The notes below the pieces were generated by a model. That model saw nothing but the letters and a program-made list of their open reading frames with translations, ran no database searches and was not told the origin of the DNA. A DNA stretch of 64,000 nucleotides from Candidatus Omnitrophota bacterium (lineage in GTDB: Bacteria; Omnitrophota; Gorgyraeia; Zapsychrales; Fredricksoniimonadaceae). This document shows positions 2,947-21,202 of this stretch, piece by piece. Where the stretch lies: the NCBI GenBank assembly GCA_903901225.1, contig CAIUQE010000035.1:9249-73248 (forward strand), read 5' to 3'. Position numbers and translations under genes: made by a program. Positions within the stretch are counted from its first letter, which is position 1. Each line of letters opens with the position of its first letter.

Positions 2947-5900
2947 TTGAAGAATTGTACGCGAGTGTTGCGTAAATTTATTGCCACCGTATTGATCCTG
3001 GCCTTCACGCTGATGGATCTGCGCGCCTATGCCCAGGGGGTGATCCCCTTGCCGCCGCCAGGCACGCGCCTGGCCCTCAGCCCTATTGTTGCCCCACCGC
3101 TGCTCAAGGGCATCAAGGTGTTCCGTGACGATCCTTTCCGTTTTGATTTTATCCTCGATAAAGGTGACGCGCCGTCCACGGATACGCAGGTTAAAACAGA
3201 TTCAACCCGCCTGATCAAATACTTCCTCGCCGCGCTCACAGTCCCTGAAAAAGACCTCTGGGTCAACCTTTCGCCCTACGAAAAAGACCGCATTGTGCCC
3301 GAAGCCTTTGGCCAGACCGAGATGGGGCGTGATCTTCTGGCCCAGGATTACATTCTTAAACAGATAACGGCATCAGTTCTCTATCCGGATGAGAAAACTG
3401 GCAAGGAATTCTGGGCTAAGGTCTACGCCGAAGCGCAGCAACGTTACGGCACAACCGACATCCCGGTGGACACCTTCAACAAAGTCTGGATCGTCCCGGA
3501 GAAAGCCACCGTCTATGAACACCAGGACGCCGCCTTTGTGGTCGAGAGCGGATTGAAAGTCATGTTGGAAAGTGATTACGTAGCCATGTCCCGGGCGGAC
3601 ATGAAGTCCGCCCCTACAACACAGGGTGTTGCTCTCATGAGCGTAGGGGAGGACCTTGTGTCCTCCCGTAACGAGATCGCAAAAAATGTTTTACGCGAAG
3701 TCATCATCCCCATCCTCGAAAAAGAAGTCAACGAAGGCAAGAATTTCGCCACGCTCCGCCAGGTTTACAACTCCCTCATCCTGGCCACCTGGTACAAGCG
3801 CAAGATCAAAGCCAGCATCATGGGCCGGGCGTACGTCGACCAAAAGAAAACCGCCGGCGTTGACATTGTTGACAAGAACGAGAAGGAAAAGATCTGGGCC
3901 CAATACGTCGAAGCCTTCAAGAAAGGCGCGTACAACTTCATCAAGGAAGAATATGACCCGTCCACGCAAACCACGATCCCCAGGAAGTATTTTTCCGGTG
4001 GGATGGATTGCTCGATGGAGGTGTTCAAGGTAAATGTAACAGATGCGGCTATGCCGGTTGAGGCAATTACCCCAGGACGTGACGTTGTTATCGGTGTAAC
4101 AGGGGCGCTGGAAAAGCCTGCCTTTGAAGAAAATTACAATTTGAAGACATCCGATCAGGACCACGCCATGTTCTCATCGGCGTTAAACATCAAATACAGG
4201 CCTGAGGTCGAACGAATTTATGATATTTACAGCCAGTTCATAAAGGATGGCGGAGGTTATGTATTGCCGTTTTCAAAAGAAAAAGCAGTGAAAAGATTAG
4301 ATTTTCGTTCAGCGGCGAAATCGTATTTTATTGCCGGATGTTATCTTGGTGTTGCCCTTGCTGTAGGTGGTATTCAGTATAGCCTGATACCGGATTCATT
4401 TTTTTTCCAAACAATTGGCAGTTCCATAAAAGTTCTTTCATTAGCGATGTTTTTTTATAAATCTTATACTTCTTTCCTGTACGGCGGGCTTCAGCCACTA
4501 ACTCATAAAGTTATCATGACACGGGCAACAGGTAAACTTGATGCTTTTCATGCGTATGGTATTTCTCATGAGATGGCCCATGTTCTGGAAATGCCAAAAA
4601 ATATTATATATGCTAATGCGTATGGTTTCTTAATGAGCAAGAAACTTGGCTATGAACATTCCAGCTATGATGAGAACATGGCTTTAATTTATGATTTGGA
4701 TATGTTTTCGTCTAAGAATCTGAATGACCATATCTGTCGTGGGCCGGGGTATGCGGTCGCCAATATTATTTTAAAAGAATTTCCCGGCACCTTGTCGGAT
4801 CAGGAGAGGTTGCTTAGAAAATTTCTTCAAGCAGTAGAAAGAAACGAATTTATGCTGGATGAAAGCATAAAAGATGCTTTGAAAAAGACACGATCAAGCC
4901 TGGAAGAGAAAGATTACTTTATAGTTGCTCCCAAACGTGAAAAAAGTTGGATATATCGATATGGGAACGGGATCGCTCAGCTGGCGTTACGGCATTACAA
5001 CAATGACGTTGACGCCGCGTTGCGATATATTTATCGGCTTAGTCGGCAACGGGATTCAAGGTTGGCAGATAAGCCCGTTGATAATGCTATGGAAGAAAAA
5101 AATGACGGCGGGATCAAAGATTTCAATGAAAAATCATTACTTGCCCCCCACCGCCTGACGATCGCCGAAGCCAGGGAGCGCTTGATCGACAGTTTAAAGG
5201 TCATCAAGGCGCATTATCCTGCTTTTCAAAAAGCTTGTTCCGATGGGCTTGAGGTTTTCAAGAACGAAGGAGTTAAGGCATTTGAAAGCAGATCTTATCC
5301 GGTGATCAAGGCAGAGGCCGATGCCCTTCGGGTCCACGTTGACGCGGTGAAGGCATTGCCCGCGTTATTGGGCTTTTCAGAGCCGGAAATGAAAGCCAAA
5401 CTGGATCCGTTCCTGCGGCAGATCGCTGAAGAAGCAAAAGTGGATAAGGTCCTTATTTCGTTCAGGACTGGTTTTTATTATGATTTTTCTTATACGAGCG
5501 GCTTTACGGATGAAGAAATTATGAATTTCAGATTACAGAACGATGAAATTTTCGATGTGATCTCTAATTCCGGAATTCAAATGAGTCCTGAGAAAATAGC
5601 CAAGGGGATGAACGCGTTAAGATCCGCGGGTATGGTTTCAGCACTCGACGTATCAACAGACGCAAAATGGTTGATCAAGATAGAGGATTCTTACATTTCA
5701 ATCGTTATCGGGCGCTCAGCGCAAGGGGTTTCATTGAATGGAGAGCTTACGGATAATGACAGGAAGGCTTTGGCCACGAAGTTGAACGCATTTGTAAGGA
5801 ATGGCCAAGCTCCGTGGTATGGGGTGAGGAAGTTTCTTGACGACAATCAATATAAAACATTTGACGATTTTATGTATTTCTTAAGGCACAACAGCGGGAT

Positions 5901-6819
5901 TGGTCCTTTAAAGGAACACATACTCCCGATCATTTATAATAATATTCCGGAATTGCTGAAAGGATCTCCCGCGCAAGACGGAAGGATTCAGCAGCGGGAT
6001 GATCACATTATTGGAAACATGGTAGAAGTATTAAAACAAACACAACTCCTTGGTAATGTGGAAACATTTTTGCAGTTATTGGAAAAGGGGGCTGAATTTA
6101 AATCTTGGGATATTTCAGGAGAAGTTCATCAGAGAGTCGCGTCATTTAAAGGGATGGCGGAAGACAAGAAGCTCAAGCTTGATATTTCCGGTCTCACAAA
6201 TGAAGCGCTGATCGTCCCTGCGTGCGACCTGAACTGGCTGGATGTGGTGGTGGATAATCTCCTTCAGAATGCCATTAAATATACATCGGCCGGCGCGGTG
6301 AAGGTTCGTCTTTCTAAAAAGATGATGCACGCGGAAGATCCTGATTTAGAACAAGCATTTGCTGTTCTGGAAGTCGAAGATACGGGCATAGGTGTTCCTG
6401 CAGATGAAAGGGTTGCAGTATTGGAGAGAGGATACCGGGCAACGAACGCGATCGCCGCTAAGATCAAAGGCACGGGCATAGGGTTGGATGCTGTTTCTAC
6501 TATTCTGCGCTTGATGCAAGGCGATATTACGGTTGAACCCGGTGAGAATGGAATAGGTTCAAAATTCATCGTCCGCTTGCCGCTTGTTCAAGATCCAAGC
6601 CAGGATCAAGCTGAGGTACCTTTACCCGGCGGCATCGACCTTAACCCGGCGCAACTTGATCTTAAAACGCAGAATTCCGGCGGCGAGATCGCTTTCAATC
6701 TTGACCCCACGTTGCTCGCCCGCCTGCAGAATGCTTCCGGCATTTCACCCGTGATCGTCAGTGTGCGGCCGCTGGACAGCATTTCTGCATTCATGGGGAT
6801 CCAGAAGCCTGTGAAATGA
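2947..6819 (+). CDS. giant (1290 aa) secreted/membrane protein, paralogue A: conserved N-terminal ~330 aa domain, two TM helices, C-terminal GHKL/HATPase_c ATPase domain, conserved ~60 aa C-terminal tail
   Basis: TTG start with an AAAGGA SD 6 nt upstream. Signal peptide ending AYAQG. Residues ~35-365 are ~65% identical to the 17180 protein. N-box LLQNAIKYT, G1 VEDTGIGV and G2 GTGIGLD motifs are present near the C-terminus, but no recognisable H-box. The last ~60 aa (GGIDLN..DL....G..F.DP...) are shared with the paralogue. Confidence 0.75.
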   Translation: MKNCTRVLRKFIATVLILAFTLMDLRAYAQGVIPLPPPGTRLALSPIVAPPLLKGIKVFRDDPFRFDFILDKGDAPSTDTQVKTDSTRLIKYFLAALTVPEKDLWVNLSPYEKDRIVPEAFGQTEMGRDLLAQDYILKQITASVLYPDEKTGKEFWAKVYAEAQQRYGTTDIPVDTFNKVWIVPEKATVYEHQDAAFVVESGLKVMLESDYVAMSRADMKSAPTTQGVALMSVGEDLVSSRNEIAKNVLREVIIPILEKEVNEGKNFATLRQVYNSLILATWYKRKIKASIMGRAYVDQKKTAGVDIVDKNEKEKIWAQYVEAFKKGAYNFIKEEYDPSTQTTIPRKYFSGGMDCSMEVFKVNVTDAAMPVEAITPGRDVVIGVTGALEKPAFEENYNLKTSDQDHAMFSSALNIKYRPEVERIYDIYSQFIKDGGGYVLPFSKEKAVKRLDFRSAAKSYFIAGCYLGVALAVGGIQYSLIPDSFFFQTIGSSIKVLSLAMFFYKSYTSFLYGGLQPLTHKVIMTRATGKLDAFHAYGISHEMAHVLEMPKNIIYANAYGFLMSKKLGYEHSSYDENMALIYDLDMFSSKNLNDHICRGPGYAVANIILKEFPGTLSDQERLLRKFLQAVERNEFMLDESIKDALKKTRSSLEEKDYFIVAPKREKSWIYRYGNGIAQLALRHYNNDVDAALRYIYRLSRQRDSRLADKPVDNAMEEKNDGGIKDFNEKSLLAPHRLTIAEARERLIDSLKVIKAHYPAFQKACSDGLEVFKNEGVKAFESRSYPVIKAEADALRVHVDAVKALPALLGFSEPEMKAKLDPFLRQIAEEAKVDKVLISFRTGFYYDFSYTSGFTDEEIMNFRLQNDEIFDVISNSGIQMSPEKIAKGMNALRSAGMVSALDVSTDAKWLIKIEDSYISIVIGRSAQGVSLNGELTDNDRKALATKLNAFVRNGQAPWYGVRKFLDDNQYKTFDDFMYFLRHNSGIGPLKEHILPIIYNNIPELLKGSPAQDGRIQQRDDHIIGNMVEVLKQTQLLGNVETFLQLLEKGAEFKSWDISGEVHQRVASFKGMAEDKKLKLDISGLTNEALIVPACDLNWLDVVVDNLLQNAIKYTSAGAVKVRLSKKMMHAEDPDLEQAFAVLEVEDTGIGVPADERVAVLERGYRATNAIAAKIKGTGIGLDAVSTILRLMQGDITVEPGENGIGSKFIVRLPLVQDPSQDQAEVPLPGGIDLNPAQLDLKTQNSGGEIAFNLDPTLLARLQNASGISPVIVSVRPLDSISAFMGIQKPVK
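3593..3667. repeat. REPIN-like hairpin doublet, copy A, in frame inside CDS (GGGCGGAC-atgaa-GTCCGCCC ...32 nt... GGGAGGAC-cttgt-GTCCTCCC)
   Basis: Two 21-nt hairpins (8-bp GC stem, 5-nt loop) 32 nt apart. Additional CCCCTAC/GTAGGGG pairing bridges the spacer. Homologous to the copies at 17832 and 10929. Confidence 0.8.
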
Positions 6820-8756: not shown

Positions 8757-9667
8757 ACAAACCCCCCGTTATTTTTATCGCCGGCCCGACAGGTGTCGGG
8801 AAATCCGCGGTGGCCATGGCTTTCGCGGGACTCGCGACGCCAGAGGCTGTCGAGATCGTCGCGTGTGACGCCATCCAGGTCTACCGTGAGGTGGCGATCG
8901 CCAGCGACAAGCCTTCTTCCGAAATGCGCCGGCAGGTGCGGCATCATTTGCTGGATGTTGTTTCTGTTGTTGAGGAATTCAACGCGGCGCGATATCGCGC
9001 GCTGGCGGTCGCGGCGGTCGATGATATCCTTGCCCGCGGGAAACAACCCGTGATCGTCGGCGGCAGCGGGATGTACATGATGGCCTTGCTGGACGGTCTT
9101 TTTGAAGAAGGCGGGGCCTCGGAAAGCCTGCGCGTCGCGCTGGAAGGCAGGGAGCTTTCCGGCCTTTACGCGGAATTGCAACGCGTTGACCCCCAGGCGG
9201 CCGCAAAGATCTCATCGAATGACAAAAAACGCATCGTGCGCGCGCTGGAAGTTTTTCACGCGACGGGCGTGCCCATGTCCGTTCAGCAGAAGAAACGCGA
9301 AGGCCTGTGGGGCAAGCATGACATTCGTATCATCGGCCTCGAACGCCCACGCGCTGAACTATATCGTCGGGTGGAGGCGCGGGTTGACGCGATGTTCGAC
9401 GCCGGGCTCGTTGACGAGGTGAAAGGTTTATTGCGCAGGCCGCTTTCTTTGACGGCGGCGCGCATCATCGGCGTGCCCGAGATCAAGGGTGTTCTTAACG
9501 GTGAGTATGATCTGGAACGCGCGCGGTATCTGATCAAACTGCACACGCGCCATTACGTGAAACGCCAGATGACATGGTTCCGCAAGGACAAGCGCCTGCA
9601 GTGGCTGGTGCCGGGGCCGAATGAGACCGCCCCAGAAACAGCGCAACGCATAAAGGATATGATATGA
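8753..9667 (+). CDS. miaA: tRNA dimethylallyltransferase
   Basis: P-loop IFIAGPTGVGKS, typical length (304 aa) and MiaA core motifs. GTG start overlapping the upstream stop. Confidence 0.9.
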   Translation: MNKPPVIFIAGPTGVGKSAVAMAFAGLATPEAVEIVACDAIQVYREVAIASDKPSSEMRRQVRHHLLDVVSVVEEFNAARYRALAVAAVDDILARGKQPVIVGGSGMYMMALLDGLFEEGGASESLRVALEGRELSGLYAELQRVDPQAAAKISSNDKKRIVRALEVFHATGVPMSVQQKKREGLWGKHDIRIIGLERPRAELYRRVEARVDAMFDAGLVDEVKGLLRRPLSLTAARIIGVPEIKGVLNGEYDLERARYLIKLHTRHYVKRQMTWFRKDKRLQWLVPGPNETAPETAQRIKDMI

Positions 9668-10911
9668 AAGAAAAGATACTGCTGGCGATCGTGGATATGA
9701 AGCTTCGGAATGCCTGGCCGGTTGAAGAAGTTATCCATGAGATGACGGAACTTGTGAAGGCGTGCCAGGGCGAGGTGGTGGGGCATATTATTTGCCCGGC
9801 GCATCCTCCGACGGCCGCCACGCTCATTCACAGCGGCAAGGTCCTTGAGGTCGCTGAATTGGCCCGTGTCCAGGGCGCGCAGGGGGTTGTTTTCAGCGAG
9901 GAGCTTAAGGGTGTCCAGCAGCGTAATCTTGAAGAAGCGCTTGCCGTTAAGACGATCGACCGCACCCAGCTTATCCTCGATATTTTTGCCCGCCGCGCGG
10001 TATCGCTCGAAGGGAAACTGCAGGTCGAGTTGGCCCAGCTGGCGTACCGCCTGCCGCGGCTGGCCGGCCATTATGACGACCTTTCGCGTCAGGGCGGCGG
10101 CATCGGCACGAGCGGCCCCGGCGAGACCAAGCTTGAGGTGGACCGCCGGCGCATTGCAGTGCGCATCGACAAGCTCAAGAAAGACCTTTTGGATGTGACC
10201 CAGAGCCGCATGACCAAACGCAAGAAACGGGAGTTGCAGCACATCCCGCTCATTTCGCTCGTCGGTTATACCAACGCGGGAAAGTCCACCCTTCTTAACA
10301 CGCTGACCGGCGCCCATCAGGCAACCAAAGACGGGCTGTTCACGACGCTTGATTCGCTCGCGCGCCAGCATGTCCTGCCTGATCGGCAGAAAGTTGTTTT
10401 TTCGGACACGGTCGGGTTCATGCGCGAGCTGCCGCACAACTTGATCGAGGCGTTCAAGGCTACGCTTGAGGAAGTGCAGAGCGCGGACATCCTCCTGCAC
10501 GTGGTGGATGTCAGCAATCCGCGTTACCGCCATTTGAAAGAGAGCGTCGACCAGGTGCTTGACGCGCTGGGGGCGCTGAACAAGCCGACGATCCTGGTCT
10601 TCAACAAGATCGACCGGGTCGAGGACAAGGAAGAGCTTGAAACGGCCTGCGGAAGATACGGCAATACCATCGCGGTTTCGGCGCTGGAAAAACAGAACAT
10701 CGACGGGCTCCTGCGCCTGATCGAAAAAGAACTGGGCGGGCGTGTCGTGGCGGTGGATGTGGCGATCCCCGTCAACCGCATGGATCTGGTGAACATGGTC
10801 CACAAGCAGGGCCAGGTCGAAGCCATTGAATACTCGGGGGAGAGCATCCGCGTGAAGGCCGTCGTGCCCCAGCAGCTCGCCGGGCTTCTTGAGAAAGCCG
10901 CTGCGTCCTAG
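9664..10911 (+). CDS. hflX: GTPase HflX
   Basis: HflX N-domain followed by G-domain motifs (GYTNAGKSTLLNTLTG, DTVGF, NKID). Confidence 0.9.
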   Translation: MKEKILLAIVDMKLRNAWPVEEVIHEMTELVKACQGEVVGHIICPAHPPTAATLIHSGKVLEVAELARVQGAQGVVFSEELKGVQQRNLEEALAVKTIDRTQLILDIFARRAVSLEGKLQVELAQLAYRLPRLAGHYDDLSRQGGGIGTSGPGETKLEVDRRRIAVRIDKLKKDLLDVTQSRMTKRKKRELQHIPLISLVGYTNAGKSTLLNTLTGAHQATKDGLFTTLDSLARQHVLPDRQKVVFSDTVGFMRELPHNLIEAFKATLEEVQSADILLHVVDVSNPRYRHLKESVDQVLDALGALNKPTILVFNKIDRVEDKEELETACGRYGNTIAVSALEKQNIDGLLRLIEKELGGRVVAVDVAIPVNRMDLVNMVHKQGQVEAIEYSGESIRVKAVVPQQLAGLLEKAAAS

Positions 10912-10928
10912 AACTCCGTTGAACGTAG

Positions 10929-11009
10929 GGGCCGACCTTGTGTCGGCCCGAAACATTTGCCGGATATCATAAGGATGCATTCTCCGACGGGAGGACACAA
11001 GGTCCTCCC
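10929..11009. repeat. REPIN-like hairpin doublet, copy C, intergenic (GGGCCGAC-cttgt-GTCGGCCC ...39 nt... GGGAGGAC-acaag-GTCCTCCC)
   Basis: Same 21-nt hairpin unit as inside the giant genes. The two hairpins are in mutually inverted orientation. Lies 18 nt after the hflX stop. Confidence 0.8.
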
Positions 11010-11045
11010 CCACGCACCATTTAAACATTCACAGAAAATTTTTTC

Positions 11046-11074
11046 TTGACAAAATCCAAGGTGAGTTGTATATT
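11046..11074 (+). promoter_or_regulatory. sigma70-type promoter TTGACA-17-TATATT
   Basis: Perfect -35 hexamer, 17-nt spacer and TATATT -10, ~150 nt upstream of the MORN gene. Confidence 0.6.
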
Positions 11075-11117
11075 TTAGCAGTAACCCATTGAGAGTGCCA
11101 GAATCAGTGGGTTTTTT
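11075..11117 (+). promoter_or_regulatory. CIRCE-like element (TTAGCAGTA-N9-GAGTGCCAG) overlapping a 10-bp stem-loop followed by a U-run (intrinsic-terminator-like leader)
   Basis: Each half matches the CIRCE consensus 7/9. The stem AACCCAUUGA/UCAGUGGGUU (one G-U pair) has an 11-nt loop and is followed by UUUUUU. It sits immediately after the -10. Confidence 0.4.
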
Positions 11118-11226: not shown

Positions 11227-12237
11227 ATGTTCAAACGCTTCCTCTTTTTTGCTATCGTTTGCGTTATCAGCGTTGCCAGCGCCTGGGCCCAGGACAAGGT
11301 CAAGGATGGTTTTTACAACGAGTACGATGCCAAAGGCGTTCTGGTCCGGGCCGTGGAATACCAGTTGGGCGTGCCTCACGGGCGTTTCCGCGCGTATTAT
11401 CCCGACGGGCGCATCAAGGCCACGGGCCATTATCTCAACGGCCAGCTTGACGGGGAGCTTGAGGAATATCGTCCGGACGGAAAACCCCTGACGCGGGCTG
11501 TTTACCGGCAGGATCGTTTGCACGGGGTGAAGGTGTCGTATTATCCCGACGGTGTGATCAAAAGCGAGGAAACGTTCATTGAGGGCGCGAAGGACGGGGT
11601 GAGCAAGGAGTATGACCGGCTCGGGCGGCTCGTCTGGGCGCGTTCTTTCCGGCATGCCCAGGAGGATGGTGTTTCAAAACAATACTATCCCAGCGCGCGG
11701 GTTTATCGTGAGTATGAGTATAAGAACAATGTTCAGCACTGGTATATCCGTGAGTACGCCGAGGACGGGAAGCTCACAGGCGTGTATCAGGCGGATAACG
11801 GGCTGCGTGAAGGGTCGGGCAAGGAATATTTTACCACGGGCGAGATAAAGCTCGACGGGTTCTTTGAGAAGGATCAGCTGAACGGCCTTGTGAAGATCTA
11901 TGACAAGAACGGCCATCTTCATATCCGGGCGAATTATACGGCGGGCCATATTGATGATGCCGCCTGGCGCGAATATTACGAGACGGGTGAATTGCGCTGG
12001 GTCGTGCCGGTGCGCCAGGACCTGAAAGAAGGCCTGGGCCGCGAGTATTTTGAGAACGGCGTTCTCAAGAGTGAGGGCAGCTTCGCCCATGACAAGCGTG
12101 AGGGCGTTTTCAAAATATTTGATACGGAGGGCATCCTTGTCGCGGAAGATAAATACAAGGCGGACTGGCTCCTGCGGCATACGGAATTCTATCCGTCGGG
12201 AAAGGTAAAGACGGACAAGTATTTTTTTGATCAATGA
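11227..12237 (+). CDS. MORN-repeat (YwqK-like) secreted protein
   Basis: Signal peptide, then ~12 tandem YxDGxxxxEGxYxNGxxxG-type MORN variant repeats. Confidence 0.65.
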   Translation: MFKRFLFFAIVCVISVASAWAQDKVKDGFYNEYDAKGVLVRAVEYQLGVPHGRFRAYYPDGRIKATGHYLNGQLDGELEEYRPDGKPLTRAVYRQDRLHGVKVSYYPDGVIKSEETFIEGAKDGVSKEYDRLGRLVWARSFRHAQEDGVSKQYYPSARVYREYEYKNNVQHWYIREYAEDGKLTGVYQADNGLREGSGKEYFTTGEIKLDGFFEKDQLNGLVKIYDKNGHLHIRANYTAGHIDDAAWREYYETGELRWVVPVRQDLKEGLGREYFENGVLKSEGSFAHDKREGVFKIFDTEGILVAEDKYKADWLLRHTEFYPSGKVKTDKYFFDQ

Positions 12238-17050: not shown

Positions 17051-17179
17051 AACTCACAACTGGATTTTTTTGTGCCACAAACTTGCATTTTGCTACATTA
17101 TGTGCTATTTTTCTGCTTAAACCACCTATTGACAGATCGACTTTGTTCATAAACCCTTAAATTTTTGAGGATTAATGCC

Positions 17180-20100
17180 ATGAAGAAGACCTTTTATTTT
17201 CGATTTATTTCTGCCTGGATCCTTGTCAGTTTCCTGACAACCGGGGTGGTCCCGTCGGGCGCATACGCGCAGGCGTTGAACCTTCCGGCACCGGGGACCA
17301 TGGTATCCCTGACACCGGCCTATATGCCGATCCTCATGAAGGGTGTCCGGGTGCATCCCGAGAACCCTCTTTTGTTTGACTTTATCCTCGATAGCGGGAA
17401 ATCCGCCCTCAAGGCTGAAAGCCCTGAATTCAAGGCTGAATCCCAAAAACTCATCAAGTATTTCCTGGCGTCATTGACGATCAAGGAAGAAGACCTGTGG
17501 GTCAACTTGTCGCCTTACGAAAAAGACCGGATGATCACCGATGAGCTGGGCAAGACCGAACTGGGGCGTGACATGCTGGCGCAGGATTATATCCTCAAGC
17601 AGTTGACCGCTTCCCTTATATACCCCGAGAAGGATCTCGGCAAAGCATTCTGGGACAGGGTTTACTCCAAGGCGCGGGAACAATTTGGTAACACAGATAT
17701 CCCGGTCGACACCTTCAACAAAGTCTGGATCACAGCCGACAAGGCCAAGGTCCTCGAACGTAACAACGTAGCCTACGTCGTCGGCGCGCATCTGAAGGTG
17801 ATGCTGGATGTGGATTATACCGCTGCTATGCGGGCCGACACAAGGTCGGCCCCTACAACCAATAATGTTAGTGCGAAGGGCGTAGGGGAGGACCTTGTGT
17901 CCTCCCGCGATGAGATCGCCCGACAGGTCATCCGCGACGTCGTCATCCCCGAGATCGAAAAAGAAGTCAACGAAGGCCAAAACTTCGCCATGTTGCGCCA
18001 GATGTTCTATTCCATGATCCTCGCCTCCTGGTACAAGCTCGCGCTCAAGGATGCGCTGCTGAATCAGGTATATAGCAATCAAGCCAAGACCAGCGGGGTC
18101 CTGTCCGACGATCCGGCGGTCAAGGACAAGATCTATACGCAGTATCTGGAAGCCTACAAGAAGGGCGTGTTCAATTATATCAAGGAAGACATGGACGCTG
18201 TGAGTCAGCAGCCTGTGCCGCGGAAGTATTTTTCGGGTGGGCTCAATTTATTTCCCAAGGGATCTGAAACTGTTGAGTATGCGCAAGCGGCAACGCAGGA
18301 GCAGATAGCGAATATTACGTTTTCAAAATTATGGTCTATTTCCGTTCTGGTTACCCGAGAGCGGACGCCACCTTCTAAGGCAACAGAGACGGAGCCGACG
18401 ATCCTTTATGATCTGTGGGGAAGCATGGAAGTTACACCTGCAGTAGATCTCTATAAATTGGAAAGTTGGTGGATAGAAGGGGGAGAATATTGGAAGGCTT
18501 TCGTGAATCTCAAGAAAGCCCTCGATACAGATGCCAAATATACTCGTTTTGATGACATGGGCAAGGCGGAAAATTATATATCTGGAAAAAAATTTAAAGA
18601 AGCTGAAAAGATATTAAGGCAGGTCATATCAGCCAATCCGGAGTATTCATTGGCCTATGCCTATTTAGGGTTGGCCTTATGCGCGCAAGGCAATACTGAA
18701 GAGGCATACAAGAATAATATGAAAGCCGCGGAGCTGGATGCCATTAACAAGATCGAAATAAGAAAATTTCCGCAAAGGCCATTGTCGCGTGCGGCGAGAC
18801 TTGAAAGATATATGCAAATTTTCAGAAAATTTTTTCCTCAAAGAATGACGTATGAAGCTTTTGTGGATCGTGTTTGGGATGGCAGGATCAAGGAAAACCC
18901 CAGGATCAAGGTCCAAACTTATTCGGCGAATAAAGACAAAAAAAGTATTTATGTGGGGAAGTTGAATAAAATTGGCCCATACTTGGAGCTCTTTATTCAA
19001 CCTGAGGAAGGGGATGGGGTAAAAATAGATTCCTACAAAATTAAAAGGATCACTGTTTATCCCGATTTAGCTCAGGTGAAAGAGGCGTCTGACGCGGCGG
19101 AAAAGAGCTTATCTGTTGAAGAAATGATCTCATTGGGACAATTGCATGAACGCCAAGGTGATTTGGAAAGTGCGGAAAAATATTTTCGTGATGCTGTGAA
19201 AAAGAACGGCAATGATGCCAGGGCCCACGCGGTCCTTGGCGTGTTTTTGAGATCTGTGAATCGTCTGGATGAGGCCGTGCAAGAGTTGGAGATAGCTCAA
19301 AACTTGGATCATCAGTATTATCCTGAGTATTTTACCGTCGACGGAATCCAAAAGCTGATAGATGGATATGTAGTTGATGCCATTGAGGATTTTGAAGAGG
19401 CAGTGAAATCAGATGAAGAGATGGCATTGGCTTATGCGTGGTGGGGGATCGCCTTGAATGCCGCAGCAGATAAAAAAGCCAAAAGAGAGGGGGGGCAAGT
19501 CTCGGGATCTCAAAGAAGCGAGGCACTTGGTTATATAAAACACGCGTTGATATTGGATCCAGAAAACAAGGAGATCAAAAGACTTCTTGCCCTTCTTAAG
19601 CCATCCTTTTTATCAAAGGTGAGGTTCGCCAGGGATTTCACCGGGGAAACAATGAGCGCTGAACAGTTTAAAAAAGCGATTCTGACGGGGAAGATCCAGC
19701 CGGGGACCAGGATCAAGATCAAACGGGTCTTTGAAGAAGGGGTTTCCACGGGGATCACGGATAATGTCGTTTTTGGATATGTCGAGACAACGCCCCATAG
19801 CAGTACGCCTGACATTGTTTACAATCTCCCGTTATTTACAGGTGATGGAAAAATAGTGAGTCTTGATAAAATTGTTGAGGTTACTGTTTACGACGCGTCA
19901 ATGGAAACTATCACGGCGCCCGAAGGCCTGGAGAACTCAAATCAAACATTGACCATCAAGTCCGACGCGGCGGAAAAAATATCAGGGTCAATGCGTCAAA
20001 CGGATGCTGAAATTATGGCAGGCCTGGAAGAAATAATGGCTCTTCCTGATGCATCGAAAGAAGCCATGGAGCAAGTTTTGTCAGATTTTGCGCAGGGAAT

Positions 20101-21202
20101 TCCTCCCACAACGAATATATCTGATGTGCCGACAGATCAGGAATTGGAGGATTTGGTTTTCAAGGTTTCGGAATTTGCGACAAGTAACAGTGAATTTATT
20201 CAAGCGTTGCAAAGAGTAACGCCTGAGCAGATCGAGGAATTTGTCAGGATGGATTTGCGTTTTGACGAAGATAAGAAACCGGCACTCATTCAATTGATGC
20301 TGAAGATCAGGGAGCTCTCCAGTGATCACGTTCTTGCGGCTGGAAGGATGTTGGGGGAAAACCCAGAAGTATCAGCAAATTTTATTAAAACCGTTAATCA
20401 ATTGGTTTATATCTTTGAACAGGGAAAGCTTGGCGGGTTGGTCAAAGTGGACAAGGAAAGGCAAAGAAGGATACATCTGATAAAAGGCGCATTTGAATAT
20501 GTCCTGTTTTTTGCGATGGCTTTGGTTGGAGAGATGGGGGCAGAACAGCTTTCTGAAGTTCGTGGGAATTTGTCGAGGTTTTTTATGGTGGCGATAAGTA
20601 TAGCTTGGTTGATCAATAAATCGGGGATGGACATTTCAAATCCATTAGGAACAAAGTCACCTGCGTTGATCAAGCCGGTTTATTTCAATTCTATGTTGAA
20701 GGCGGATATGGTAAAGATGGCCGAGGATTTTTTGAAGGATAATAGATCGGTCAGGGCGGCCTCCGAAAATATCGCGTTATTGAAACTCAAGAAGCGGTTG
20801 ATGCTTTGGCTGAAGAACACCATGTTCATTGATAAAGATTCACGTAACACGGCCTTTAAGGGGATATCAACGTATATCCGTGTTGTTGAGGTGCAGAAGG
20901 GCTTGTACAAAGTAGAGCTTGATCCCGATGCCAAGATGGATGGCGCGCAAAAGGGCATGGACCAGGCGGAAAATGTTAAAGAACCTGAGCAGCATAGAGA
21001 TAATGCCGGAGTTACAAACGGCGGTATCGACCTCAACGCCAAAAAGATGGACCTGGACGTGGCCAGGGATGGCAAGGGTGTTGAGATGACATTTGACCCG
21101 GCCATGGTCGCGGAGTTCCGCAAGGGTAATTTTACGGGAGTTGAAGGGATCATCCTCAAGATCGTCCCGATCGAGAACCCCCAGGCGCTCCTGGGGCTGT
21201 AG
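17180..21202 (+). CDS. giant (1340 aa) secreted protein, paralogue B: conserved N-terminal domain, TPR repeats, conserved ~60 aa C-terminal tail; no ATPase domain
   Basis: GAGGA SD 8 nt upstream of the ATG at 17180. Signal peptide ending AYAQA. The N-terminal ~330 aa and C-terminal ~60 aa are homologous to the 2947 protein. The middle contains TPR-like repeats and is AT-rich. Confidence 0.75.
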   Translation: MKKTFYFRFISAWILVSFLTTGVVPSGAYAQALNLPAPGTMVSLTPAYMPILMKGVRVHPENPLLFDFILDSGKSALKAESPEFKAESQKLIKYFLASLTIKEEDLWVNLSPYEKDRMITDELGKTELGRDMLAQDYILKQLTASLIYPEKDLGKAFWDRVYSKAREQFGNTDIPVDTFNKVWITADKAKVLERNNVAYVVGAHLKVMLDVDYTAAMRADTRSAPTTNNVSAKGVGEDLVSSRDEIARQVIRDVVIPEIEKEVNEGQNFAMLRQMFYSMILASWYKLALKDALLNQVYSNQAKTSGVLSDDPAVKDKIYTQYLEAYKKGVFNYIKEDMDAVSQQPVPRKYFSGGLNLFPKGSETVEYAQAATQEQIANITFSKLWSISVLVTRERTPPSKATETEPTILYDLWGSMEVTPAVDLYKLESWWIEGGEYWKAFVNLKKALDTDAKYTRFDDMGKAENYISGKKFKEAEKILRQVISANPEYSLAYAYLGLALCAQGNTEEAYKNNMKAAELDAINKIEIRKFPQRPLSRAARLERYMQIFRKFFPQRMTYEAFVDRVWDGRIKENPRIKVQTYSANKDKKSIYVGKLNKIGPYLELFIQPEEGDGVKIDSYKIKRITVYPDLAQVKEASDAAEKSLSVEEMISLGQLHERQGDLESAEKYFRDAVKKNGNDARAHAVLGVFLRSVNRLDEAVQELEIAQNLDHQYYPEYFTVDGIQKLIDGYVVDAIEDFEEAVKSDEEMALAYAWWGIALNAAADKKAKREGGQVSGSQRSEALGYIKHALILDPENKEIKRLLALLKPSFLSKVRFARDFTGETMSAEQFKKAILTGKIQPGTRIKIKRVFEEGVSTGITDNVVFGYVETTPHSSTPDIVYNLPLFTGDGKIVSLDKIVEVTVYDASMETITAPEGLENSNQTLTIKSDAAEKISGSMRQTDAEIMAGLEEIMALPDASKEAMEQVLSDFAQGIPPTTNISDVPTDQELEDLVFKVSEFATSNSEFIQALQRVTPEQIEEFVRMDLRFDEDKKPALIQLMLKIRELSSDHVLAAGRMLGENPEVSANFIKTVNQLVYIFEQGKLGGLVKVDKERQRRIHLIKGAFEYVLFFAMALVGEMGAEQLSEVRGNLSRFFMVAISIAWLINKSGMDISNPLGTKSPALIKPVYFNSMLKADMVKMAEDFLKDNRSVRAASENIALLKLKKRLMLWLKNTMFIDKDSRNTAFKGISTYIRVVEVQKGLYKVELDPDAKMDGAQKGMDQAENVKEPEQHRDNAGVTNGGIDLNAKKMDLDVARDGKGVEMTFDPAMVAEFRKGNFTGVEGIILKIVPIENPQALLGL
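17832..17906. repeat. REPIN-like hairpin doublet, copy B, in frame inside CDS (GGGCCGAC-acaag-GTCGGCCC ...33 nt... GGGAGGAC-cttgt-GTCCTCCC)
   Basis: Same position in the protein alignment as copy A. It encodes RADTRSAPTT...VGEDLVSSR. Confidence 0.8.

Follow-up and report, generated by a model that had tools for sequence, protein, structure and literature searches.

Six short palindromes, arranged as three doublets, lie within a 64,000-nucleotide stretch of Candidatus Omnitrophota DNA (hereafter the window), and two of the doublets are embedded in reading frames. The question raised by this locus is what these palindromes are and how they come to be translated. The reading that we favor, with a probability of roughly 0.8, is that they are GTAG-tagged REP dimers, one of them extragenic in HH arrangement and the other two, in TT arrangement, tolerated in coding sequence.

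Tagged hairpins and their dimers

The unit has the form GGGNNGAC-N5-GTCNNCCC, i.e., 21 nt with an 8-bp stem and a 5-nt loop. Its six occurrences are found where the initial annotation had placed them, at 3593-3613 and 3647-3667 (doublet A), 17832-17852 and 17886-17906 (doublet B), and 10929-10949 and 10989-11009 (doublet C). A motif search of the window allowing up to two mismatches gave five matches, against 0.01 expected from shuffles. No degenerate copies beyond the six units were found in the 64 kb, and no Rfam family was matched anywhere in the window. The loop is CTTGT/ACAAG in five of the six units and, as first described, deviates in A1 (ATGAA). The variation at stem positions 4-5 is equally as described (CG, AG, CC, AG, CC, AG), the two arms being perfectly complementary inside each unit. 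Every stem is adjoined on its 5′ side by an unpaired tetranucleotide that was absent from the initial annotation, GTAG in five units and GTGG in C2. Folded as single-stranded DNA, all six units form perfect 8-bp hairpins (-8.6 to -10.6 kcal/mol, z-scores -3.3 to -5.0); for A1 the value is -10.5 kcal/mol, with the tag unpaired. The two tags of a doublet face each other in A and B but point away from each other in C. By the convention of Di Nocera et al. (2013), A and B are TT heterodimers with 25 nt between tags, and C is an HH heterodimer with 39 nt between stems (the corresponding gaps between stems in A and B are 33 and 33 nt). Mutual inversion of the units, previously noted for B and C, is in fact common to all three doublets. 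The features are as follows.

2947-6819, plus strand: host gene A, 1290 aa, with a signal-peptide-like N-terminus, an N-domain of about 350 aa, and a C-terminal HATPase_c
3580-3604, plus strand: imperfect palindrome no. 7, GTAG-tagged, gtag-CCATGTCC-cgggc-GGACATGA, overlapping A1
3593-3617, minus strand: REP unit A1, GTAG (CTAC at 3614-3617) plus GGGCGGAC-ttcat-GTCCGCCC; CG-type stem, non-canonical loop; read on the gene strand it gives RADMKSAPT
3618-3642, plus strand: spacer of dimer A, 25 nt between the inward tags, sharing 52% identity with its counterpart in dimer B
3643-3667, plus strand: REP unit A2, GTAG (3643-3646) plus GGGAGGAC-cttgt-GTCCTCCC; AG-type stem; encodes VGEDLVSS
9664-10911, plus strand: hflX (GTPase), which precedes dimer C
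10925-10949, plus strand: REP unit C1, GTAG (10925-10928) plus GGGCCGAC-cttgt-GTCGGCCC; extragenic
10989-11013, minus strand: REP unit C2, GTGG (CCAC at 11010-11013) plus GGGAGGAC-cttgt-GTCCTCCC; extragenic
17165-21202, plus strand: host gene B, 1345 aa, with an N-domain as in A followed by TPR repeats
17832-17856, minus strand: REP unit B1, GTAG (CTAC at 17853-17856) plus GGGCCGAC-cttgt-GTCGGCCC; CC-type stem; encodes RADTRSAPT
17882-17906, plus strand: REP unit B2, GTAG (17882-17885) plus GGGAGGAC-cttgt-GTCCTCCC; AG-type stem; encodes VGEDLVSS

Copy C starts 18 nt past the hflX stop (10911), in agreement with the initial annotation, or 14 nt past it when the tag of C1 is included, and dimer C stands between hflX and a predicted near-consensus promoter (11046-11074). 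An intact version of the palindrome at 3580-3604, GTAGCCATGTCC..GGACATGGC, is present in loci L016 (as a tandem duplicate) and L207.

The doublets had been likened to REPINs. As in REPINs (Bertels & Rainey 2011, PMC3116915), two inverted REPs flank a short spacer, and the folding of the doublets is strong (z-scores -5.6 to -6.7), with one long hairpin each as the minimum free energy structure. The single long hairpin suggested by these folds is ruled out by covariation: over five sequences the inter-unit helix is 88.8% paired, shows no compensatory change, and has the NN positions mismatched in four of five, so that two separate hairpins are favored. Unlike REPINs (PMC3116915), the doublets combine differing stems, the three spacers have unrelated sequences, and C deviates in length and orientation. 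The term is thus too strict for these elements, and their sequences give no sign of a doublet replicating as a unit.

Spread of the family and its link to RAYT genes

The same motif was found 128 times in 119 loci from many phyla. The NN positions are complementary in 115 of the 128 matches (chance 1/16), with seven pair types in other genomes (CA, CG, AG, CC, AC, TG, and CT), and a 5′ GTAG is present in 95 (chance 1/256), although the tag was outside the search pattern. HH and TT dimers also occur elsewhere (L121, L170, L208, and L073). The count of intragenic versus intergenic copies that had been proposed as a check was run on these 119 loci and shows a mostly extragenic family: an ORF of at least 600 nt spans 17% of the matches versus 74% of positions drawn at random from these loci. 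Taken alone, the window is atypical for REPs, with two of its three dimers intragenic and only copy C extragenic.

RAYTs, the REP-associated transposases (TnpA_REP), are tyrosine transposases of the IS200/IS605-like type. Window-type units, some of them identical to A2/B2/C2, bracket RAYT-like ORFs or their homologues in five unrelated contigs from other phyla (L003, L091, L073, L204, and L205). The best NCBIfam match of the four RAYT-like ORFs is REP_Tyr_transpos, with E values of 1e-15 to 1e-21 but scores below the equivalog cut-off, and Pfam Y1_Tnp is above cut-off in three of the four. RAYTs were found neither among the ORFs of the window (64 kb) nor in Omnitrophota-type loci totalling 795 kb, and the transposase link in this lineage is therefore indirect; the null result carries no negative weight, because RAYTs are usually single-copy.

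Judged by their sequence, all six hairpins belong to the GTAG-tagged REPs, in a pan-bacterial, mostly extragenic family. The core of the initial annotation, REP-type doublets of which two are embedded in frame, is upheld by the association of a GT(A/G)G tag with a palindrome, by the complementary stem variants, and by RAYT bracketing elsewhere. A RAYT would have been present in the source genome and may have placed the units through single-strand cleavage and strand transfer.

Coding copies and the domain that hosts them

The two host genes were presented as giant paralogues. With products of 1290 and 1345 aa they are large, not giant, and paralogy holds for the N-terminal ~350 aa (53% identity) and a C-terminal tail of ~70 aa but not elsewhere. 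The ~350-aa N-domain of gene A, specific to Omnitrophota, has no match in Pfam. Dimers A and B do lie in frame at homologous positions, encoding RADMKSAPTTQGVALMSVGEDLVSSR and RADTRSAPTTNNVSAKGVGEDLVSSR, respectively, and the closest orthologue (P0001, 79% identical) has the peptide RADIKSAPTT..VGADLVSAR. Dimer A corresponds to residues ~216-241 of the gene A product, where the AlphaFold model has a coil (221-239, pLDDT 52-56), and the dimer position is the most variable stretch of the N-domain alignment. The host loop is hypervariable and probably a disordered surface coil. In such a coil of an Omnitrophota-specific domain the intragenic dimers would be tolerated: the units stay open in the frame that is read (VG.DLVS. 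and R.D..S.PT), and the loop would gain ~25 residues.

Alignment of the orthologues, suggested initially as a means of recognizing an insertion, shows that the peptide is missing from most homologues. Among 93 homologous loops the hairpin is absent in 76, and the 17 others bear perfect hairpins of at least six unrelated palindrome families, in TT and HH arrangements and with varied spacing. In 80 unbiased loci there are 33 GTAG-tagged hairpins (1-5 in shuffles), of which 20 fall in the N-domain, i.e., in 12.8% of the DNA, and their density in its coil regions is about tenfold that of the remaining sequence, counts that are not phylogenetically independent, as some copies are of common ancestry. 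Hairpins in the N-domain cluster at residues 73-81, 216-234, and 309-315, all of them coil in the AlphaFold model. A search for relics allowing up to five substitutions revealed no extra ones above chance. The loops are also mosaics common to several clades (L141, for example, joins L016-like and L129-like modules), and their sequences point to exchange between paralogues. The three coil regions probably act as sinks, taking up REP-type palindromes from several unrelated families that are gained, lost, and probably exchanged among the many paralogues.

The tags and stems of the coding copies are better conserved than their surroundings. Between A and B, the units are identical at 45/50 positions versus 602/987 in the rest of the domain (P=1.6e-5), and third-codon positions at 13/16 (81%) versus 144/329 (44%; P=0.004). 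The longest identical run of the domain, 28 nt at 3641-3668, holds A2. Because tags and stems outlast the surrounding codons between these paralogues, the constraint is on DNA and not on the peptide. In five homologous dimers the local hairpins are 100% paired, two stem pairs having changed on both sides, and loops and spacers drift while stem pairing is kept. These observations leave a vanishingly small probability to an ordinary conserved protein segment that resembles the sequence at 10929 by chance, the case in which the initial annotation would have been wrong. Nothing in favor of such a motif was found, and it is ruled out by the homologues, most of which lack the peptide, by the conservation of nucleotides, synonymous sites included, and by the identical 25-nt element, which occurs in phyla that are unrelated, lies for the most part outside genes, and adjoins RAYT genes.

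Tag and stem are kept and the spacer has diverged between paralogues that are 53% identical; a purely neutral passenger is therefore insufficient. Their conservation in A and B would need recent homogenization or selection on the hairpin. The hairpins might accordingly be functional nucleic-acid structures selected within the host genes, and not merely passengers. They could serve as an mRNA stabilizer, a processing site, or a translational pause between the halves of the exported domain, or else as a DNA site for a host factor or RAYT. The excess conservation of tag and stems (also at third-codon positions), the compensatory changes, and the strong folding of the doublets argue for such a role. 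Among 14 recognizable units in the family loops, 11 are perfect and three have a single G:T each, which in all three would be G:U on the sense strand, a bias that is not significant (3/3, p = 0.125). We nevertheless find a function unlikely: most homologous loops are hairpin-free and the others have unrelated palindromes in either orientation, the unit is also extragenic, both in the window (copy C) and in many phyla, and in L207, a locus found by peptide similarity, one unit is decayed and the other lacks its tag. Of the two options in the initial annotation, the tolerated mobile palindrome thus fits the loops better than a structure belonging to the gene family, and the intragenic copies of these REP dimers would have no function of their own in the host genes.

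The tolerated palindrome was thought to have colonized the gene before it duplicated, a single REP dimer then being inherited vertically by both paralogues. Dimers A and B occupy the same position in the same frame, with equal unit offsets (13 and 67 nt in a 46-codon loop) and an equal gap of 33 nt; their spacers have diverged, as would those of old copies; and the stem type of unit 1 tracks lineage, being CG in gene A, L124, and L016, and CC in gene B and L120. Such a history is nonetheless doubtful, because the genes with a doublet do not form a single clade. When 210 N-domains were placed in a tree with the loops masked, TT-bearing genes fell in two distant clades whose common ancestor is that of the whole family. 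The dimer is missing in P0002, P0003, P0046, and P0004, whose cores are 83-86% identical to that of A, and in the nearest relatives of B, so that a single insertion requires very many independent losses. The mosaics that cross clades also speak against it. A more speculative scenario, to which we give little credence, is that REPs supply the raw material, perhaps even the mechanism, by which three surface loops became hypervariable in a massively expanded family of exported Omnitrophota proteins. Cassettes would then be gained, swapped, or lost by RAYT- or hairpin-mediated recombination, with tag and stem selected for exchangeability; REPs would in that case have been domesticated for protein diversification.

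Comparison with known systems

GTAG-tagged REPs were surveyed by Di Nocera, De Gregorio & Rocco (2013, BMC Genomics 14:522, PMC3733652), whose account includes 24 families. The elements described there have stems of 5-13 bp (mostly 6-9), loops of 2-20 nt, and an unpaired terminal GTAG that can become GTRG. They include sub-families with alternative complementary stem residues, and HH and TT dimers, among them heterodimers, with a spacing of 20-100 bp and variable TT spacers; extragenic copies occur <20 bp past the upstream ORF. REPs of this type are generally present in tens to thousands of copies per host genome and are predominantly extragenic. The window units match this description in stem, loop, GT[AG]G tag, stem variants, and HH/TT dimers. 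The intragenic copies of that survey are mostly dimers encoding 20-30 aa, for which siting in flexible loops was proposed, and a single region shared by five paralogous ASPIC/UnbV proteins of Opitutus terrae (PVC group) has been hit by three REP families. GTAG-REP dimers in coding sequence, even with several families sharing one paralogue site, are thus already published, and intragenic REPs can no longer be taken as exceptional, since about 70 are listed in O. terrae alone (PMC3733652). Our literature search on the motif, its peptides, or REPs in Omnitrophota found no relevant paper. GTAG-tagged REPs and in-frame intragenic dimers are now extended to Candidatus Omnitrophota.

A further parallel is provided by the Rickettsia palindromic elements (RPE), which Ogata and colleagues reportedly described in 2000 as lying in frame within protein-coding genes. 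In both systems palindromic repeats are in frame in many genes, translated, and tolerated where the fold permits. In the classification of PMC3733652, RPE-4 and RPE-6 belong to a CGTC-tagged superfamily that lacks a transposase of its own; RPE-1 is a much longer element. The Omnitrophota elements, in contrast, are GTAG-tagged and belong to a family that is RAYT-associated in other genomes.

In RAYT/REP "REPtrons," a rayt gene (an IS200/IS605-like Y1 transposase with RAYT motifs) is flanked by two inverted REPs, and GTAG and a perfect stem are given as the determinants of recognition and cleavage by TnpA_REP (Nunvar et al. 2010, PMC2817692; Corneloup et al. 2021, PMC8266576), and these are the features kept in the intragenic copies. 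The RAYT-like ORFs found here come from phyla other than that of the window and score below the NCBIfam equivalog cut-off, and their activity is putative. A single 25-nt REP unit is almost unchanged across very distant phyla, together with RAYT-like genes.

Relative to the cases described in PMC3733652, the host phylum and the host protein family are new here, and the window unit (loop CTTGT, stem GGGNNGAC) is assigned to the superfamily by its features. For annotation, VGxDLVSx, RxDTRSxPT, and similar peptides of metagenomic proteins are best taken for translated REPs and not for conserved motifs. The colonized sites are also of another kind than those cases, namely three coil regions within a single, very large family of paralogues, with palindromes of at least six families. 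The domain offers a natural example of protein structure filtering mobile palindromes, which in its 350 aa survive only in three coil regions and in open frames. Finally, compared with the same cases, the conservation of tag and stem across 53%-identical paralogues is measured here, and their intactness between old paralogues is relevant to the choice between selection and continual homogenization as the process that maintains REPs.

Anatomy and pairing of the units

The six 21-nt units reported in the initial annotation, GGGNNGAC-N5-GTCNNCCC, start at 3593, 3647, 10929, 10989, 17832, and 17886. Stem positions 4-5 (NN) vary with compensation, as had been claimed (CG, AG, CC, AG, CC, and AG, each perfectly complementary inside its unit), and the observation as a whole is confirmed. 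The loop is CTTGT/ACAAG in five units and ATGAA in A1, and a search for the motif with up to two mismatches gave 5 matches, against 0.01 expected from dinucleotide-preserving shuffles. An unpaired tetranucleotide, previously unremarked, directly adjoins the stem in all six units (GTAG in five, GTGG in C2). Single-stranded DNA folding gives an 8-bp hairpin with a free tag for each (-8.6 to -10.6 kcal/mol).

Palindromes in the window
3593-3667: doublet A (units A1, A2), within host gene A
17832-17906: doublet B (B1, B2), within the paralogous host gene B
10929-11009: doublet C (C1, C2), intergenic, beside hflX
3580-3604: seventh GTAG-tagged palindrome, imperfect, overlapping A1

In the naming of Di Nocera et al. 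(2013; PMC3733652), the GTAG tag is the "tail," outer tags make an HH dimer and inner tags a TT dimer; this makes doublets A and B TT heterodimers (CG or CC in unit 1, AG in unit 2) whose tags are 25 nt apart. Doublet C is an HH heterodimer starting 14 nt past the hflX stop, upstream of a near-consensus promoter (11046-11074), a placement that matches the usual REP site between co-directional genes.

Folded as RNA, each doublet (91-97 nt) is predicted to form a single long hairpin, since its inverted loops and tags are mutually complementary; the energies are -42 to -50 kcal/mol, with z -3.9 to -6.7. Five homologous TT dimers (window A and B and the metagenomic loci L124, L016, and L120) nevertheless vary in a way that supports two local hairpins over one long hairpin. 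In the local hairpins 100% of cells are paired and two pairs are altered on both sides (slid controls, 44-60%), whereas the inter-unit helix is 88.8% paired, has no compensatory change, and is mismatched at NN in four of the five sequences; the single long hairpin of a strict REPIN was rejected on these figures. The earlier reading of REP doublets is supported, and of its "REPIN-like" label the REP dimer stands and the strict REPIN does not, since pairing and covariation sit in the local hairpins.

The promoter near doublet C (TTGACA-17-TATATT, 11/12 to the sigma-70 consensus) lies in a segment, 11046-11117, where a hairpin (ACCCATTGA-(11-nt loop)-TCAGTGGGT) and then a T run follow about 15 nt past it. 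Ahead of the MORN-repeat gene (11227-12237), this arrangement could give a very short transcript, leader or attenuator. The hairpin has no Rfam match, and its 11-nt loop exceeds the range of the terminator scan.

Identity between host genes A and B
Units plus tags: 45/50 identical; third-codon positions, 13/16
Rest of domain: 602/987 identical; third-codon positions, 144/329

Between the two paralogs the units and their third-codon positions are more conserved than the rest of the domain (Fisher P = 1.6e-5 for all positions, 0.004 for third-codon positions), and for this reason the constraint is one at the level of DNA or RNA rather than of the peptide. The spacer has 13/25 identical positions, and the longest identical run of the whole domain (28 nt) is GTAG plus unit 2. 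Loops diverge (ATGAA, ACGAG, TTTAT, ATAAA) and stems remain paired: among 14 recognizable window-type units (GTAG plus the 21-nt hairpin), 11 are perfect and three have one G:T each. One dimer is decaying (L207), with unit 1 gone and GCAG for GTAG in unit 2; with five substitutions allowed, a search of every loop yielded no further relics beyond the chance level. The conserved features of the intragenic units, tag and perfect stem, are those that matter for binding and cleavage by TnpA_REP (PMC8266576), and their conservation fits either ongoing REP-level homogenization or selection on the hairpin. All three imperfect stems (L016 7192-7212; L121 ~3387-3407; L207 loop unit 2) have one pair that would be G:U in the sense mRNA, never A:C, a weak and nonsignificant hint of RNA-level pairing (3/3, p = 0.125).

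Distribution of the unit and RAYT-like genes

A scan with the bare pattern, using one genome per species, found at least 119 loci; the matches listed include Chloroflexota, Planctomycetota, Atribacterota, Firmicutes, Verrucomicrobiota, Acidobacteriota, Bacteroidota, and Omnitrophota. Among these listed matches NN is complementary in 115/128 (chance 1/16), with at least seven pair types, and a 5′ GTAG, absent from the search pattern, precedes 95/128 (chance 1/256). An ORF of at least 600 nt spans only 17% of them, as against 74% of positions drawn at random from those loci, and the unit family is therefore mainly extragenic. Another Omnitrophota-type contig has an intergenic window-type HH dimer (L170 2314-2377).

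Starting from E. coli RayT, a local iterative search of these loci and the 64-kb window identified four Y1-transposase-like ORFs, all in the listed loci and none in the window. Their best NCBIfam match is "REP-associated tyrosine transposase" (E 1e-15 to 1e-21, under the equivalog cut-off), and Pfam Y1_Tnp exceeds its cut-off in three of the four. Two copies of GTAG-GGGAGGACcttgtGTCCTCCC, inverted relative to each other and matching A2, B2, and C2 exactly, lie on either side of the L003 gene. Window-type units also flank its homologs in L204 and L205 (several homologs are named RayT by JGI) and the RAYT-like ORFs of L091 and L073; around a more distant homolog, in L206, the flanking units belong to another GTAG family. 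The 25-nt unit (GTAG plus GGGNNGAC-CTTGT-GTCNNCCC) hardly varies across Chloroflexota, Firmicutes, Atribacterota, and Omnitrophota (listed loci L001-L119). Such a unit bracketing RAYT-like genes suggests horizontal RAYT/REP spread or unusually slow co-evolution.

Some RAYT-like stop-to-stop ORFs run into or abut the flanking REP (L091 232-864; L205 3001-3528), which supplies the final codons or sits immediately past the stop codon.

The host loop and the history of its dimers

The intragenic doublet occupies the most variable, length-variable stretch of a 122-member protein alignment, between the conserved "...LKVMLE.DY.A" and "...IVREI.IP"; the corresponding part of an AlphaFold model is a coil, 221-239, of pLDDT 52-56 (model mean pLDDT, 79.8). 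A set of 80 metagenomic loci with genes for family members (716 kb) was retrieved, and 93 homologous loops (27-79 aa) were located. No perfect hairpin of at least 7 bp occurs in 76 of them, and the other 17 have perfect hairpins of at least six unrelated sequence families.

Palindrome families in the loops
Window type: A, B, L124, L016, L120 (TT); L121, L208 (HH)
GGGCGGCC/GGGCGACC: L125
28-nt palindrome GTAGAGACGCAAAATTTTGCGTCTCTAC: L129, L141
GGGCACCC, same ACAAG loop: L171
GGGCGCAA/GGGTTCGA: L188
ATTCCCGC: L147, L183

These 80 loci, not picked for the motif, contain 33 GTAG-tagged perfect hairpins (shuffles, 1-5). The N-domain is 12.8% of the DNA yet holds 20 of the 33, counts that are not phylogenetically independent, with clusters at residues 73-81 (five), 216-234 (nine), and 309-315 (six). 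The model shows each of the three as coil and has its lowest confidence in two of them. Loop 2 alone requires at least six separate events: the loop is a permissive site, colonized many times.

The initial annotation had proposed, as one of two alternatives, that a mobile palindrome entered the gene before its duplication. Identical offsets and the 33-nt gap argue for homologous loop segments. However, in a neighbor-joining tree of 210 N-domains (variable regions masked), TT-bearing genes fall in two distant clades (gene A, P0001, and L124; gene B and P0099/L120) whose common ancestor is that of the whole family. Neither relatives of A with a core identity of 83-86% nor the nearest relatives of B have the dimer, so that a single early insertion would require very many losses. 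Loops are also mosaics common to several clades, L141 joining L016-like and L129-like modules. The single early insertion is not supported, and exchange of loop segments between paralogs, or re-acquisition, is at least as likely.

The window-type intragenic units (window A and B, L016, L120, L121, L124, L208) are all translated in the same frames, as VG.D(L/F)(V/M)S. tag first and R.D..S.PT in the inverse orientation. One of the six frames is closed by the TAG within the tag; of the other open frames none was seen in these genes. Two further palindromic elements occur in frame. The perfect palindrome GTAGAGACGCAAAATTTTGCGTCTCTAC and its stem variants start with GTAG, end with CTAC, encode VETQNFASL, and look like a distinct tagged-palindrome family. 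The module GTAGCCATGTCC-(8-9 nt)-GGACATGGC encodes VAMSQQKDMA at the extreme loop start; its GTAG is made by Val-Ala codons after a conserved Asp-Tyr. In L016 the module occurs twice in tandem, and in gene A it overlaps A1 because an 18-nt in-frame deletion has truncated it.

In-frame elements
28-nt palindrome, loops 1 and 2: L124 1505-1532; L129 3206-3233; L141 6706-6733; L136 4050-4077; L145 797-824
VAMSQQKDMA module: L016 7213-7297 (minus strand); window 3580-3604; L207 loop start

Comparison with known GTAG-tagged REPs

The GTAG-tagged REP superfamily was defined by Di Nocera, De Gregorio and Rocco (2013, PMC3733652), who recognized 24 families spread over several phyla, the PVC group among them. 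Their account covers sub-families with complementary stems, G-T pairs, homo- and heterodimers of HH and TT type with spacers of 20-100 bp, association with RAYT, and copies inside genes; the window dimers match it feature by feature. More than half of their intragenic copies are dimers encoding 20-30 aa, for which they propose neutrality in flexible loops. Opitutus terrae has about 70 intragenic copies (their supplementary table), among them GTAG-17, -18, and -19 elements in five paralogous ASPIC/UnbV proteins (aa ~552-651), where the peptides start with VG or VAG. Neither this motif nor REPs in Omnitrophota turned up in a literature search. In conclusion, the class of intragenic GTAG-REP dimers is already known; what is new is the phylum (Omnitrophota) and the host protein family, one particular unit, with RAYT-like genes, common to very distant phyla, the confinement of insertions to three regions modeled as coil, and the conservation of tag and stem measured between old paralogs.
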